Of a stretch of 32,000 nt of DNA, positions 28,358 through 31,899 are shown piece after piece. This DNA is from Breznakia sp. PF5-3 (GTDB lineage: Bacteria; Bacillota_I; Bacilli_A; Erysipelotrichales; Erysipelotrichaceae). The position numbers and the translations under genes are program-made. How positions within the stretch are numbered: position 1 is the first letter of the stretch; every line of letters starts with the position of its first letter. Under the pieces are notes generated by a model. That model made no database searches, was not told the DNA's origin, and was given only the letters and a program-made list of their open reading frames with translations. The DNA is taken from positions 58,404 through 90,403 of the forward strand of contig NZ_JAQFIQ010000003.1 in assembly GCF_029504745.1 (NCBI RefSeq), read 5' to 3'.

Positions 28358-29800
28358 TTAATTATTTAAATCTGCATTTGCCATATAGATTGTAATTGTT
28401 GAACCGATTTCAATAAATTGATTATTATAACTAGCTCCACAAGTAATACCTTTTTCAATAGGTTGATCTTTAAATTGACATGTATTAGGAGCAACATGTT
28501 GTATTTTATAGGTAATGTTTGCACCTTTCTGATTCATTTCATAGAAGTAATCACGAAGTTCCTTCTCAGTCTTATAAATAACATCAGAACGATTGATATA
28601 TGGATTACCTATTGAATAAGTTACAACAACATTAGATACATTTTCATTTTCAATTATTGTACCAGGTGCAATGTCTTGTGAAATAAACTGTCCATAAGGA
28701 ACTCCTGCATTATACCGTTCAACAACTAAAAATGGGACACCTTCCTTTTCACCAATTTCATTGATTGTGTATAAGGTAAACATAGAAAAATTAGGAACAA
28801 TCTGTGCTTTTCCTTTTGATACAGCAATTGTAAGTTCATTTCCTTTGGCAACCTTTTCTTTTGAGGAAATACTTTGAGAAATCACTTTTCCAGCTTCTAC
28901 ACTTTCAGAGTACTCCTCCTTTTGAATAATCTTAACTTCATTTTTCTTACCCCATTCTACAGCTTCAGCAACTTCTTTACCACTAAAATCAGGAACTTCT
29001 ATTGTTTTCTTCGCTTCCCCTTTAGAAACAGTAACCGTTGCATAATCTTTACGCTTATATGCTTTTCTTGTCATATCTTTATCAGCAAATTCTAAACGAA
29101 TAAAATCCCCTTTTTTTACAGTTTTACTATACTCTTTTTGAATTTTTAAATTATCTGCTCGATTTTCACTAATCCAATCATTGATTTTAGATTCATTATA
29201 AGTTGCAAAATCCGGTATTTCTAGAAGTTCTTCTGGATCTGCTCCTTCACTAACTTTCACAATTAGCAAATCCCCTTTTTGAACACTACTACCTGCCTTC
29301 TTATTTACTGAAATCACATGATCACTATCATATTTCATAGAAAATTCTGTATTGATATCTAAATCAACACCATTTTTCTTTGACCACTCCTGCATCTCTG
29401 AAATAGGTTTATCTACGAAGTTTGGCAACGTTCTCTCATTCATAAATCGATAGACTAGAAATCCTCCAACAAACACTAATAGGATTGCTAAAACCAATAG
29501 TCCATGTTGAATAATTTTTTTCTTTTGATAATTTGGATCTTTATTAATTTCTTCTACTGTGTCTGTTCTTTTATGCTTACCTATACTTGTCTTTGATATT
29601 ACTGCGTGAACTTTATCCTTTTTATTGGCTTTATTTTCATCACTCAATGCTTTTTCAACTGTTGGTTTTGGCTTTTCAATAGGAATTTCAGTTGTTTCAT
29701 TTGATTCTTTTTCTTTATCTTCTTTTTTAGATTGCTCTTCATGTTCATCTAAAAGTTTCCCATATTTATCATCTGTAAAGTTCTTTAAAAAATCACTCAT
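28358..29800 (-). CDS. single-pass membrane protein with four extracellular PASTA repeats and no kinase/transpeptidase domain
   Basis: 480 aa. It has about 95 aa of charged, probably disordered N-terminus, a TM (GLLVLAILLVFVGGFLVY), then four ~65-aa repeats. These begin LPNFVDKPISEMQEW..., IPDFATYNESKINDW..., VPDFSGKEVAEAVEW... and VPNFSMFTLYTINEI..., each ending ..G....(V/I).VS.G like PASTA. An ~80-aa C-terminal domain with two Cys follows. Its ATG overlaps the ABC ATPase stop (ATGAGTGA). Confidence 0.7.
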   Translation of the reverse strand: MSDFLKNFTDDKYGKLLDEHEEQSKKEDKEKESNETTEIPIEKPKPTVEKALSDENKANKKDKVHAVISKTSIGKHKRTDTVEEINKDPNYQKKKIIQHGLLVLAILLVFVGGFLVYRFMNERTLPNFVDKPISEMQEWSKKNGVDLDINTEFSMKYDSDHVISVNKKAGSSVQKGDLLIVKVSEGADPEELLEIPDFATYNESKINDWISENRADNLKIQKEYSKTVKKGDFIRLEFADKDMTRKAYKRKDYATVTVSKGEAKKTIEVPDFSGKEVAEAVEWGKKNEVKIIQKEEYSESVEAGKVISQSISSKEKVAKGNELTIAVSKGKAQIVPNFSMFTLYTINEIGEKEGVPFLVVERYNAGVPYGQFISQDIAPGTIIENENVSNVVVTYSIGNPYINRSDVIYKTEKELRDYFYEMNQKGANITYKIQHVAPNTCQFKDQPIEKGITCGASYNNQFIEIGSTITIYMANADLNN

Positions 29801-30467
29801 CTTCTTTTAAAGCTCCTTGACTAAGAATAAATGATTTATCTGATTGTTTCGCAATTTCATCATTATGAGTTACAACAATAACACATTTATTATGTTCATG
29901 GGCTAACGTTTTAAAAATATTTACAATTTCTTGTTGCATGCTTGCATCTAAGTTCCCTGTAGGCTCATCAGCTAAAATAACATCAACGTTTGTTGAAAGT
30001 GACCTAGCAATTGCAACACGTTGCTGCTCTCCACCAGATAGTTTATTAATTTGTCGATCCGCTTTGGTTTTGGTGATTCCAATAAAATCTAACAAGTTAT
30101 AAGCAACTTCTTTCTTGTTTTTAGGAACATCATTATCAGTTTCTCCCATTGCCAATTCAATATTTTCTATACCTGTTAAATAAGGAATAAGATTGTAATA
30201 TTGGAAAATAATTCCAATTTTATTACGACGATATTTTTCATATCCAATTTCCTTTATTTCTTTTTGCTCATAAAGGATACTCCCTTTCATTGGTGTATCA
30301 AGAGCACTAATAAGTGATAACAATGTTGTTTTTCCAGAACCAGATTGCCCTTTAATTGTATAGAATACACCTTTATCAAAAGAACAACTTAAGTCTTTTA
30401 AAATATATCTTATATTTTCTCCATCTTGATAATAATACTCAAGGTTATTTACTTCTAATATTGCCAT
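29793..30467 (-). CDS. ABC transporter ATP-binding protein (MacB/LolD/FtsE-like)
   Basis: 224 aa. Walker A GQSGSGKTT, Q-loop, signature LSGGEQQRVAIAR, Walker B ILADEPTGNLD, and H-loop VTHN. AAGGGGGA SD. Confidence 0.92.
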   Translation of the reverse strand: MAILEVNNLEYYYQDGENIRYILKDLSCSFDKGVFYTIKGQSGSGKTTLLSLISALDTPMKGSILYEQKEIKEIGYEKYRRNKIGIIFQYYNLIPYLTGIENIELAMGETDNDVPKNKKEVAYNLLDFIGITKTKADRQINKLSGGEQQRVAIARSLSTNVDVILADEPTGNLDASMQQEIVNIFKTLAHEHNKCVIVVTHNDEIAKQSDKSFILSQGALKEDE

Positions 30468-30477
30468 AATATCCCCC

Positions 30478-31899
30478 TTACATTAATACCTTTCTAGGCT
30501 TCAATCGAACCACATATAGCGTTGGTGCAATTGATGAAACTAACAATGTCCCAAGACCAATTAGATAAAGCATTACGATATAATCACCATCTAATGTTAC
30601 TTCATAGGCATCAAGAACTTCATTTTGGTCCACATTTGAATCCATATAACTTGTATAGGTATATCCATAAGGATCTTCATTGATTACTTGTTGTTCAATC
30701 ATTTTTTGTGAAACGCCATTCGCAAGTTCTTTTCCACTAAATAATGATAATGTTAATGCAATAATACCTACAATTAACACTTCTATTACAATCTGTGCTA
30801 CAATCTTCCATTTCCTTACACCAATTGACAAATAAATTCCAAACTCATGTCTTCTATCTCTTAAGAATAAAATAACTACCAATCCTAAAATAAGAATTGT
30901 TGCACCTATTGAAATGTAAAGAATTCCAGTTGCTAACCAACTAATGAATGAGATTGGTCCTGCTACTGAATCATATGCATCACTTGAAATTGTTATAGCA
31001 AATCCTTTTGGTAACAATTTTTTTGCATCATCTCGAAATTCTTCTAATTGAGATGCATCTTTCAAATAGTAAGTAGCATTGAGGGATTCAAAATTTTCAT
31101 ATTCTTCTTCACTTTGATTAACCTTTTTTTCTTCTTCCATCATCCAGTTATTTGCTTTACTAGCAAGATCATTTGGAACATAGATTCTTTGTGTTAAATA
31201 ATAATCTACCATTCCACCATCTTCACCAGTTTCTTCTTTTATGGATAATGAAGCATCAAAAATACCAATTACGTCCATTGAATAATCTTTTGTACTCAAA
31301 ACTTTAGGATCTCCATTACCATCCATATCTTCCCAATCATAAACAGCAGCAGTAAATGTAACCGTATCTCCCACATGAATGTTATTCATTTCAGCAAAGA
31401 TGGTTGAGACAAGGGCAACTGGTTTTCCCTCATCAATTTCTTGCTGTTTAAAAACACGACCTTCACTTAGACTGATTTTCTTTTCGCTAATATCTAAAAT
31501 GGATGGTATTTGGACCCCATAAATTTCAAAACCTGCACCAATACCATCAACTACCCCCATTTCACAATCAGGGCCACAATAAGATTCATATTCTTTAGAA
31601 TTCAAAAATGAACTTACATTGTATTCATAATATTTTACACCATCTAGTTTTCCGATTTTATCAATTGTTTTTTGATCAAGCTTTGGAATTTTATCTTCAC
31701 TCAGATTTTCCCAATCATAATCAACAACAGCTTCTGCACCTAACTTGTTTTTAACCGTTTTTTCGACATTCACTGTAGCTTGTTTCACTGCGATTGAACC
31801 CGCCATAAGGTTACCTAGTATAAAAATAACTACTAATAAAATTATTGACTTCCCTTTTTTTCTAATCGTGCTCAATAAAGCTCTTTTTATAAAATTCAT
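30478..31899 (-). CDS. ABC transporter permease, FtsX/MacB type (type VII) with large extracytoplasmic domain
   Basis: MNFIKRALLSTIRKKGKS start typical of the family. TM1 is followed by an extracytoplasmic domain of about 270 aa, then three C-terminal TMs with an unusually long TM3-TM4 loop. Start at ATG 31899, 6 nt after GGAGG. The track's 22 extra codons lack an SD. Confidence 0.85.
   Translation of the reverse strand: MNFIKRALLSTIRKKGKSIILLVVIFILGNLMAGSIAVKQATVNVEKTVKNKLGAEAVVDYDWENLSEDKIPKLDQKTIDKIGKLDGVKYYEYNVSSFLNSKEYESYCGPDCEMGVVDGIGAGFEIYGVQIPSILDISEKKISLSEGRVFKQQEIDEGKPVALVSTIFAEMNNIHVGDTVTFTAAVYDWEDMDGNGDPKVLSTKDYSMDVIGIFDASLSIKEETGEDGGMVDYYLTQRIYVPNDLASKANNWMMEEEKKVNQSEEEYENFESLNATYYLKDASQLEEFRDDAKKLLPKGFAITISSDAYDSVAGPISFISWLATGILYISIGATILILGLVVILFLRDRRHEFGIYLSIGVRKWKIVAQIVIEVLIVGIIALTLSLFSGKELANGVSQKMIEQQVINEDPYGYTYTSYMDSNVDQNEVLDAYEVTLDGDYIVMLYLIGLGTLLVSSIAPTLYVVRLKPRKVLM

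Follow-up and report, generated by a model that had tools for sequence, protein, structure and literature searches.

An ABC ATPase, a permease and a kinase-less PASTA protein of Breznakia probably form a type VII ABC system with a novel kind of partner

The subject of this work is a group of three genes in a 32,000-nt stretch of DNA from Breznakia sp. PF5-3, a member of the Erysipelotrichaceae (contig NZ_JAQFIQ010000003.1, positions 58,404 to 90,403; the whole stretch is called here the window). The genes lie head to tail on the minus strand, in the order permease, ATP-binding cassette (ABC) ATPase and PASTA protein, as seen in the list of open reading frames (ORFs) of the window and in their translations; the last gene encodes a membrane protein with four PASTA repeats and no kinase domain. 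The trio is probably a type VII ABC system whose partner protein is of a new class, and a new kind of cell-envelope machine. The reading favoured here, one type VII ABC machine with a PASTA subunit that acts in accessory envelope protection, is given as a whole a probability of about 0.55, while its first part, joint action of the three proteins, in the simplest case within a single membrane complex, is very likely on the sequence data. The three genes and the junction between the last two are placed as follows.

30478-31899, minus strand: permease, 473 aa, start MNFIKRALL
29793-30467, minus strand: ABC ATPase, 224 aa
28358-29800, minus strand: bitopic, kinase-less PASTA protein, 480 aa, stop codon at 28358-28360
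29793-29800, minus strand: overlap of the ATPase stop with the PASTA start, octamer ATGAGTGA, read from the sequence

The MNFIKRALL start of the permease is the same Met that is found in its homologues, and public gene calls also give 473 aa. The spacer between permease and ATPase is 10 nt in the window, with a GGGGG Shine-Dalgarno sequence ahead of the ATPase gene. The gene order, the 10-nt gap and the 8-nt stop/start overlap ATGAGTGA had been described in an earlier reading made from the letters alone (the sequence-only reading), and the ORF list and the sequence bear them out. The overlap is consistent with translational coupling of the ATPase and the PASTA protein. The PASTA protein has an identical copy on a contig of GenBank assembly GCA_029504715.1, the permease is 100% identical to an entry labelled Breznakia sp. 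PF5-3, and a partial PASTA protein labelled Breznakia sp. OttesenSCG-928-G09 is 99% identical.

The linkage of the three genes is conserved, to a degree far above what chance would give. A genome scan, with one genome per species, confirmed 166 species; the best 80 loci, with 28 genus-level labels, were kept for a survey, for which the N-terminal and juxtamembrane motifs of the PASTA protein had served as seeds. In every one of these loci, homologues of the permease and the ATPase lie directly upstream of the PASTA gene in the same order, and the octamer ATGAGTGA is identical in 79 of the 80; the sequence-only reading had named a PASTA gene lying next to unrelated genes in close relatives as evidence against a unit, and the survey found the opposite. 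The spacer between permease and ATPase is usually 12-14 nt. Among the 80 loci are those of Enterococcus, Oceanobacillus, Vagococcus, Streptococcus, Gracilibacillus, Sutcliffiella, Tissierellia and Suipraeoptans. The same 8-nt overlap coordinates are also found in the loci L003, L005, L086 and L094. Since the overlap is invariant, the ATPase and the PASTA protein would be synthesised in a coupled and proportionate way. The sole locus without an in-frame MSDFL start or ATGAGTGA belongs to Bacillus sp. JCM 19034 (L058, about 4820-5001), where the PASTA match starts at query residue 83; a frameshift or an assembly error may explain it.

Because the survey had been seeded with motifs of the PASTA protein, loci were also reached by other routes. 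PASTA-ABC adjacency was found in nine of ten such further homologue loci, the exception being a copy decayed by IS110 elements. Direct look-up placed the trio around the PASTA homologues of S. orisratti and Alkalihalobacillus; divergent PASTA homologues of Coriobacteriales are part of a trio with a 32-nt gap in place of the overlap, and in two variants from Clostridia (L089 and L090) the trio contains multi-PASTA proteins of 743-749 aa. When permease homologues were taken as the starting point, the trio was found each time. A relative of 381 aa that has no cytoplasmic tail lies in a locus of different order (PASTA gene, 59-aa ORF, permease, ATPase); since its ATPase is of the same subfamily, with 62% identity and 30 of 36 family-specific residues, the association of ABC pair and PASTA protein survives rearrangement. 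As a whole the linkage spans Erysipelotrichales, Bacillaceae, Enterococcaceae, Carnobacteriaceae, Streptococcus, Tissierellia, Lachnospiraceae, Clostridia and Coriobacteriales, with differing flanks, and clustering of the flanking ORFs of the 80 loci gave no universal fourth gene or regulator, the next commonest neighbour being present in 14 loci. In L089 and L090 the PASTA genes (5001-7250 and 5001-7232) have about double the repeat number and an N-terminus MSENKSFL or MAENKSFL; the ATPase gene of L090 seems split into ORFs of 67 and 129 aa, which suggests a frameshift.

The three genes also appear to share their history. Enterococcus rivorum and E. ureilyticus carry two types of trio, I and II. 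Their type I PASTA protein has 69% identity to the type I proteins of other species versus 54% to the type II protein of its own genome; the corresponding values are 67% versus 53% for the permease and 96% versus 83% for the ATPase. All three proteins of the two-copy enterococci group by copy type and not by genome; therefore the trio was duplicated or acquired together and diverged together. Joint divergence of this kind is what would be expected of specific partners.

These data bear on the most trivial explanation of the locus, in which no functional unit exists and the PASTA gene is what remains of a decayed PASTA kinase gene beside an ordinary ABC exporter. The ectodomain is indeed homologous to kinase ectodomains, and some sources label family members 'serine/threonine protein kinase'. 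However, a remnant would hardly keep its linkage in all the surveyed loci, the same overlap in 79 of them, an invariant N-terminal motif of its own and co-divergence with two other genes. Hundreds of full-length kinase-less homologues were found, of about 430-560 aa and about 35% identity; a profile search gave 817 cluster representatives (clusters at 50% identity) at E <=1e-30, at least 150 clusters match the full-length profile at E <1e-90, and ten relatives of odd length have no kinase domain. This conservation refutes the remnant explanation, which retains next to no probability. Natural fusions of PASTA repeats with a kinase, the ATPase or the permease were also looked for, and none was found among the ten odd-length relatives or in the Pfam annotation of the homologues.

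The taxonomic distribution of the trio is patchy, and some enterococci have two copies. It is found in enterococci (E. raffinosus included), vagococci, animal streptococci, many Bacillaceae and gut Erysipelotrichaceae, and the usual model species apparently lack it. In a plasmid search the module was seen only on a megaplasmid of E. raffinosus of about 1 Mb (NZ_CP081847.1, 951642-964570; locus L093), as a decayed copy between IS110 transposases in which the PASTA gene is in two annotated fragments, the response regulator is truncated and the ABC genes are absent; other E. raffinosus megaplasmids match just 66% of the query. In a further locus (L092, 3063-3140) the PASTA gene starts with MDDFLSKF, has the overlap variant ATGGATGA and meets a TAG after 23 codons, so that it is either a pseudogene or a sequencing error. 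Its public gene call (P0470) restarts downstream, and this protein, once considered as a member without the motif, was rejected as such.

The ATPase is unusually conserved and under strong constraint. Over the 80 species its identity to the window protein is 63-71% outside the genus, and it rises to 94% in B. pachnodae, of the same genus; conservation reaches 90% or more at 124 of the 224 residues, and 36 positions are specific to the family. Outside the genus, identity to the window protein is 31-43% for the permease and 31-39% for the PASTA protein. In Pfam the ATPase matches ABC_tran with 110 bits, and its motifs are intact: Walker A is GQSGSGKTT, the signature is LSGGEQQR and Walker B is ILADEPT. 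The nearest solved nucleotide-binding domains are those of MJ0796, MacB, YtrE and LolD (E 1e-43 to 1e-35), and the protein lies below every equivalog cutoff of NCBIfam, those for FtsE, LolD and the lactococcin-972-type exporter included.

The permease was modelled with AlphaFold2 (AF2; pLDDT 84.4, pTM 0.68), and the model consists of a first transmembrane (TM) helix, an extracytoplasmic domain (ECD) of about 250 residues and three more TM helices.

Residues about 15-53, 305-348, 363-406 and 438-464 of the permease: TM1, TM2, TM3 and TM4 (AF2 model)
30988-31734, minus strand: ECD of the permease, residues 56-304, from TM1 to TM2 (AF2 secondary structure)

The modelled permease has a type VII ABC fold with four TM helices. 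Its Foldseek matches, with E-values from 1e-13 to 1e-6, are LolE (9RLC) and LolC, S. pneumoniae Spr0694-0695 (5XU1), MacB (5GKO, 5LIL), YtrF (9O9X), HrtB, YbbP and BceB, the last as a partial fold only; for LolE, 5XU1, MacB and YtrF the range is 1e-13 to 1e-9. YtrF has the top TM-score (0.54/0.57) at a sequence identity of only about 14%. The ECD resembles those of MacB, LolE and YknZ, and the permease is far more like these extractor-type proteins than like FtsX, whose structures match it only at E 6e-4. A sequence search gave no significant relative of solved structure, and no NCBIfam model covers the permease. In Pfam the protein matches FtsX (PF02687) with 37.6 bits against a cutoff of 25.5, which together with the fold matches to LolE, 5XU1, MacB and YtrF agrees with the MacB/FtsX type assigned by the sequence-only reading; of the two Pfam families proposed there, FtsX passes its cutoff and MacB_PCD (PF12704, residues 147-316) reaches 23.1 bits, below its cutoff of 27. 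MacB_PCD is listed in the precomputed Pfam annotation for most permease homologues. From the fold matches of the permease, the nearest solved relatives of the ATPase and the failed equivalog cutoffs, it follows that the ABC pair is a type VII system of the extractor-like MacB/LolC kind, and not FtsEX.

A locus of unusual composition gives a view on the division of labour within the trio. In L095 (JGI 2225789004, 2974-12973) five tandem permease paralogues of 481-515 aa are followed by one ATPase gene and one PASTA gene, again joined by ATGAGTGA. The mean identity of the paralogues is 46% in the ECD versus 59-65% in the TM parts, and the ECD is the fastest-diverging part of the system. As the five paralogues share one ATPase and one PASTA protein and differ most in the ECD, the locus suggests that specificity resides in the ECD, with ATPase and PASTA protein as a constant core.

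The family relationships of the ABC pair also allow two alternatives to the favoured reading to be weighed. In the first, the pair would work in the manner of FtsEX, activating a hydrolase or a synthase encoded elsewhere, with the PASTA protein targeting it to the septum or the nascent wall. The membership of the type VII superfamily fits this proposal: both systems consist of an FtsE-like ATPase and a four-TM permease of the FtsX fold, and would do their work outside through a peptidoglycan-linked partner that is not a transporter (EnvC, PcsB, CwlO and RipC in the case of FtsEX). The PASTA repeats of StkP and PBP2x localise to division sites, and an NlpC/P60-SH3 gene lies near the trio, on the opposite strand, in one Clostridia locus. 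However, no hydrolase is conserved in the neighbourhood of the 80 loci, and the FtsEX models of NCBIfam are missed widely, by the ATPase for FtsE (TIGR02673, 162.7 bits against a cutoff of 264.85) and by the permease for FtsX_actino (15.4 against 250). The ECD of about 250 aa is MacB/LolC-like, whereas that of FtsX is small; the partner is membrane-anchored, encoded in the same operon and built on a PASTA ectodomain, whereas the FtsEX partner is a coiled-coil hydrolase or activator. Finally, FtsEX is near-universal and the trio is accessory in its distribution; patchiness, duplicates and a decayed copy ill suit a core division role. An FtsEX-like activator is therefore improbable.

In the second alternative the trio would be an exporter of a peptide, a bacteriocin or a lipid-linked cargo, in which the PASTA protein replaces the membrane fusion protein (MFP) of MacA, YknX or Spr0693 as a conduit or anchor through the wall. 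MacAB, Spr0693-0694-0695 and B. subtilis YknXYZ share with the trio the permease fold and ECD, a MacB-type nucleotide-binding domain, the number of genes and a bitopic third subunit with a large outside domain, and the topology of the PASTA protein (short cytoplasmic N-terminus, one TM helix, large outside domain) is that of an MFP adaptor. Moreover, among NCBIfam models the lactococcin-972-type bacteriocin export family scores best with the ATPase, albeit at 182.8 bits against a cutoff of 254.85, and the permease has one of its top fold matches in 5XU1, the structure of Spr0694-0695, which operates together with an MFP. On the other hand, the third subunit of MacAB-type pumps is an HlyD-family MFP, whereas in the trio it has PASTA domains only, and no MFP is found among the conserved neighbours in the 80 loci; the order permease-ATPase-partner, with the partner start coupled to the ATPase stop, is also unlike that of the pumps. 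No bacteriocin, precursor peptide or biosynthetic gene is conserved beside the trio in the same loci, the NCBIfam cutoff is not reached, and we know of no PASTA repeats that oligomerise into channels. An exporter with a PASTA adaptor is hence very improbable.

The PASTA protein starts with a disordered K/E-rich tail of 95 aa; after this come a single TM helix, the four PASTA repeats and, at the C-terminus, a small module. Its AF2 model, built on 92 family sequences, has pLDDT above 90 from residue 90 on and below 50 over residues 24-83, and shows an ectodomain of five small alpha/beta modules after the TM helix.

29762-29800, minus strand: N-terminal cytoplasmic motif MSDFLKNFTDDKY, consensus M-S-D-F-L-S-[KN]-F-x-x-[DN]-x-Y
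29558-29761, minus strand: disordered E/K/S/P-rich linker, residues 14-81, varying in length and sequence by species
29516-29557, minus strand: juxtamembrane segment VEEINKDPNYQKKK, conserved; acidic, DPxY, basic
29438-29515, minus strand: single TM helix, about residues 96-121, N-in, sequence not conserved
29240-29437, minus strand: PASTA repeat 1, residues 122-187; 37.9 bits alone, HHalign to repeat 3 99.7%
29015-29221, minus strand: PASTA repeat 2, divergent, residues 194-262; HHalign 96-98% to repeats 1, 3 and 4
28808-29005, minus strand: PASTA repeat 3, residues 266-331; 57.5 bits alone in Pfam
28604-28798, minus strand: PASTA repeat 4, residues 335-399; 19.3 bits alone (sub-threshold), HHalign 96-99% to repeats 1-3
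28361-28603, minus strand: C-terminal alpha/beta module, residues 400-480; pLDDT about 80-97

In Pfam the protein matches PASTA (PF03793) in three stretches with 94.5 bits against a cutoff of 23.2, and profile-profile comparison finds the four repeats mutually homologous (HHalign probability 96-99.7%), so that the repeats assigned by the sequence-only reading hold against the hidden Markov model. The layout proposed there, a TM helix, four PASTA repeats and a small C-terminal domain, is likewise found by Pfam, HHalign and AF2. Repeat 2, scanned singly, gave no Pfam match, and it carries an R250 that is invariant in the family and near-invariant Y248 and D252, all three being candidate ligand residues. 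The C-terminal module has no Pfam match and no family assignment; its HHalign probability to repeat 3 is only 65%, and it may be a degenerate fifth PASTA-like unit. Its two Cys sit in an insertion that the nearest aligned relatives share.

By sequence and by fold the closest solved ectodomains are those of the kinases Stk1/PrkC of S. aureus (3M9G, 3PY9) and PknB of M. tuberculosis (2KUI, 5E12), and Foldseek matches the ectodomain to PASTA structures with probability 1.0; the PASTA pairs of the penicillin-binding proteins (PBPs) PBP2x and PBP1 rank next, PBP2x through its PASTA pair only. Pfam finds no Pkinase, transpeptidase or PBP dimerisation domain in the protein. The NCBIfam kinase model PknB_PASTA_kin (NF033483) is matched at positions 354-525 only and reaches 112.5 bits, where its cutoff is 450. 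None of the NCBIfam models covers the protein. Thus the likeness to a kinase ectodomain without kinase or transpeptidase, already noticed from the letters alone, is sustained by the domain models and the closest structures. Like the PASTA kinases PrkC, StkP, Stk1/PknB and IreK, the protein is N-in and bitopic with a tandem-PASTA ectodomain; unlike them, it has a 13-residue motif and a disordered linker in the place of the kinase domain. Its C-terminal module is alpha/beta in the AF2 model, whereas the C-terminal domain of S. aureus PrkC is Ig-like, and its gene is tied to an ABC pair, whereas PASTA kinases are usually partnered with a phosphatase gene.

Some further proteins with PASTA domains came to attention. 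Ten giant proteins of 1,700-3,300 aa (P0464, P0495, P0500, P0509, P0524, P0545, P0552, P0560, P0570 and P0589) match the family profile in 11-28 stretches and apparently are very long PASTA-like arrays. A 'PASTA domain-containing protein' of S. suis (WP_012775338.1) is listed in a phosphoproteome with phosphosites T25, S30 and S72 that depend on the kinase STK (PMC8707513). Its link to the family is unconfirmed and it is probably a different protein; no S. suis member was found among the cluster members or with a streptococcal query. A reading as a defence system was rejected, as PADLOC matched only at the level of domains (the PASTA part of PD-T4-6 kinase models, and a generic P-loop for the ATPase).

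The cytoplasmic part was described by the sequence-only reading as about 95 aa of charged low-complexity sequence, which holds for its K/E-rich composition and its low pLDDT, but overlooks that both ends carry conserved motifs. The N-terminal motif is kept in 76 of 77 family sequences; M1, F4, L5 and F8 are invariant in the alignment of 92, and the divergent and multi-PASTA relatives retain a core [DS]FLxx[FIL] near the N-terminus. At the other end D88 is invariant and Y91 nearly so, and a basic cluster lies N-terminal to the TM helix, which the model extends over residues 91-121 with pLDDT above 90. Over the family the tail as a whole measures 95 aa at the median and up to 184 aa, with 17% E, 14% K and 10% S. 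A conserved end motif, a variable linker and a conserved juxtamembrane segment would together be the anatomy of a tethered docking peptide.

This anatomy is the starting point of an alternative in which information flows from outside to inside. With muropeptide or lipid II bound, the ectodomain would change its oligomeric state, as in PknB and PrkC, and the MSDFLxxF peptide would then bind or let go of the ATPase dimer or a different cytoplasmic protein, which would gate ATP hydrolysis or relay a signal; in effect, an ABC ATPase would be the effector of a PASTA sensor where otherwise a kinase domain is. Besides the docking-peptide anatomy, the tether of 80 residues could reach the nucleotide-binding domains, the ectodomain is nearest to those of kinases and not to the PASTA domains of PBPs, the ATPase is exceptionally conserved, and the start/stop coupling joins the PASTA gene to the ATPase gene and not to the permease gene. 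However, the tail-less relative keeps the ABC linkage, with 30 of the 36 family-specific residues in its ATPase; hence the tail is not required for the association, and the 36 residues do not track the motif. Outside-in gating or signalling is unlikely, and so is the role of the ATPase as a kinase substitute; the alternative is compatible with the favoured reading, from which it differs in the reversed flow of information. A related proposal, doubtful but somewhat easier to accept, is PASTA sensing without a kinase, a signalling or effector pathway widespread among Gram-positives in which the ectodomain would report lipid II or muropeptide status directly to the ABC ATPase machine. The report could pass through TM and ectodomain contacts and the tethered DFLxxF peptide, and swappable permease ECDs, up to five paralogues per locus, could set the targets. 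If this were true, PASTA proteins would be a new class of type VII ABC partners and an ABC ATPase a new output module of PASTA sensors.

Returning to the favoured reading of a type VII machine with a PASTA subunit, its steps can be proposed as follows. The complex would probably contain two copies each of permease, ATPase and PASTA protein. The PASTA ectodomain would recognise un-crosslinked stem peptide or lipid II like the repeats of PrkC, StkP and PknB; because it is homologous to the PASTA ectodomains of kinases, binding to one of these ligands is predicted, and by analogy is rather probable. The PASTA subunit could position the permease ECD where lipid II is exposed, and ATP binding and hydrolysis would move the ECD by mechanotransmission, so that it acts at the interface of membrane and wall. 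The output is speculative: it might be the dislodging of lipid II-bound antimicrobials in the style of BceAB, or the extraction of a lipid-linked compound. The variable ECD would set the specificity over the constant core of ATPase and PASTA protein, and the MSDFLxxF peptide, on its flexible tether of about 80 residues, is a putative docking motif for a cytoplasmic partner.

The sequence-only reading had named cell-wall surveillance, resistance to lipid II-targeting antibiotics and control of wall remodelling as possible roles. The genomic context leans towards an accessory role in envelope stress or against antimicrobials, and away from core wall remodelling. The type I trio of enterococci lies between frr and uppS-cdsA-rseP, inside an otherwise conserved pyrH-frr-uppS-cdsA-rseP cluster (L048, L052, L055, L057, L059, L081 and L084, and also L040 and L077, where only uppS is seen), and uppS, which encodes the undecaprenyl-pyrophosphate synthase, is directly downstream of the trio in nine enterococcal loci. 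The type II trio is preceded by a histidine kinase gene and another pair of MacB-like ABC genes, for example in E. pallens; an OmpR-type response regulator and a histidine kinase follow directly 3' of the trio in both Clostridia loci, L089 and L090, and in O. sojae a set of response regulator, histidine kinase and ABC genes is downstream. BceAB is described in a passage of PMC7038271 as giving target protection of lipid II-cycle intermediates, and the ytr operon in a passage of PMC12772383 as induced by lipid II-cycle inhibitors. These precedents, the extractor-type permease, the patchy, paralogous and partly decayed distribution and the neighbours of the two-component, ABC and uppS kinds are the reasons for proposing, tentatively and as something short of an even chance, that the trio is an accessory module that protects or services the lipid II cycle, the permease ECD doing ATP-driven work at sites marked by PASTA.

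The two precedents are alike in part only. BceAB-BceRS also combines an FtsX-superfamily ABC transporter with a sensor-like membrane protein, and some lineages of the trio lie beside OmpR-type response regulator/histidine kinase pairs and Bce- or MacB-like ABC genes; however, BceB has ten TM helices, with its ECD between TM7 and TM8, and BceS is a histidine kinase, whereas the permease of the trio has four and its partner has no catalytic domain, and a two-component linkage is not general. YtrEF (PDB 9O9X; B. subtilis ytrGABCDEF) provides the best TM-score for the permease and one of the closest nucleotide-binding domains for the ATPase, but the ytr operon has no PASTA protein and includes instead a GntR repressor, a second ABC set and small membrane proteins.

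Several points weigh against the favoured reading. The survey of 80 loci is conditioned on the N-terminal and juxtamembrane motifs with which it was seeded. The linkage to two-component, other ABC or uppS genes is lineage-specific and most loci are without any, and no regulator gene is seen in the window or in the locus of the congener. Not every PASTA domain binds peptidoglycan or lipid II: muropeptides are not bound by that of M. tuberculosis PonA2. In addition, repeat 2 has diverged too far for the Pfam model to match it. The putative complex and its 2:2:2 composition are proposed from gene organisation only. Docking of the motif on the ATPase is unsupported, given the 30 of 36 family-specific residues kept by the ATPase that is paired with the tail-less relative.

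The trio fits the type VII ABC superfamily and does not qualify as FtsEX, as an MFP-dependent pump, as BceAB, as a PASTA kinase or as a PBP. Type VII ABC machines are defined by the partners that they have outside the membrane, as in FtsEX with EnvC or PcsB, MacAB, LolCDE with LolA, YbbAP with TesA and BceAB with BceS. To our knowledge, PASTA domains have so far been found only on Ser/Thr kinases and class B PBPs, and are the only well-studied extracellular wall sensors of Gram-positives. A search of full-text literature, to which subscription-only articles are not open, found no description of an ABC-PASTA pairing or of a kinase-less PASTA partner, in line with the sequence-only reading, which knew of none. 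A conserved ABC-PASTA system would add a class of partners to the type VII machines and a kinase-independent use to the PASTA repeats; its apparent absence from model species may explain why it has received no study, and, should protection of the lipid II cycle be its role, it would be a candidate determinant of intrinsic resistance.

As to the ends of the operon, the window holds only about 100 nt 5' of the trio, so that the promoter falls beyond the window end. A terminator scan found no intrinsic terminator 3' of the PASTA gene, and for this reason the 3' end of the operon is uncertain. Rfam gave no cis-regulatory RNA in the window or 5' of the trio in nine other loci, where the lone match was an unrelated T-box in L049. 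An 83-aa ORF (28054-28305, minus strand) that starts 52 nt 3' of the PASTA gene, after a strong AAAGGAGG Shine-Dalgarno sequence, encodes a stand-alone FakA-like middle domain (PF21645, 69 bits). Since the sole terminator-like hairpin, AT-rich and found by eye, sits 3' of this ORF, it may be co-transcribed with the trio. The ORF is present in the same-species contigs L001 and L002, and B. pachnodae and the remaining loci have another ORF downstream.

The window as a whole holds no tRNA genes or Rfam elements. A DarT-like ORF (26718-27425, minus strand; ssDNA thymidine ADP-ribosyltransferase PF14487, 40 bits) is perhaps an orphan toxin, or else a divergent member of its family: it is flanked by an orphan phosphotransferase system (PTS) IIA gene and a pyridine-nucleotide disulfide oxidoreductase gene, has no adjoining macrodomain (DarG-like) partner and no match in PADLOC. 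The PTS IIA is of the lactose/cellobiose type (27598-27921, minus strand; PF02255, 109 bits) and has no adjoining IIB or IIC gene. Two tandem regulators of the Rrf2 family, of 143 and about 150 aa, are encoded by overlapping ORFs (24373-25234, plus strand), divergently from a cysteine synthase-like PALP gene (23299-24249), and are followed by a gene for a CoA-disulfide-reductase-like oxidoreductase (25298-26635); this group could be a thiol/redox regulon. The region 1459-15702 contains ordinary Bacillota housekeeping genes, namely ffh (SRP54), an RlmA-like methyltransferase gene, thiI, a cysteine desulfurase gene, ezrA and rpsD, together with genes for two M16 peptidases, ftsK/spoIIIE and RNase J.

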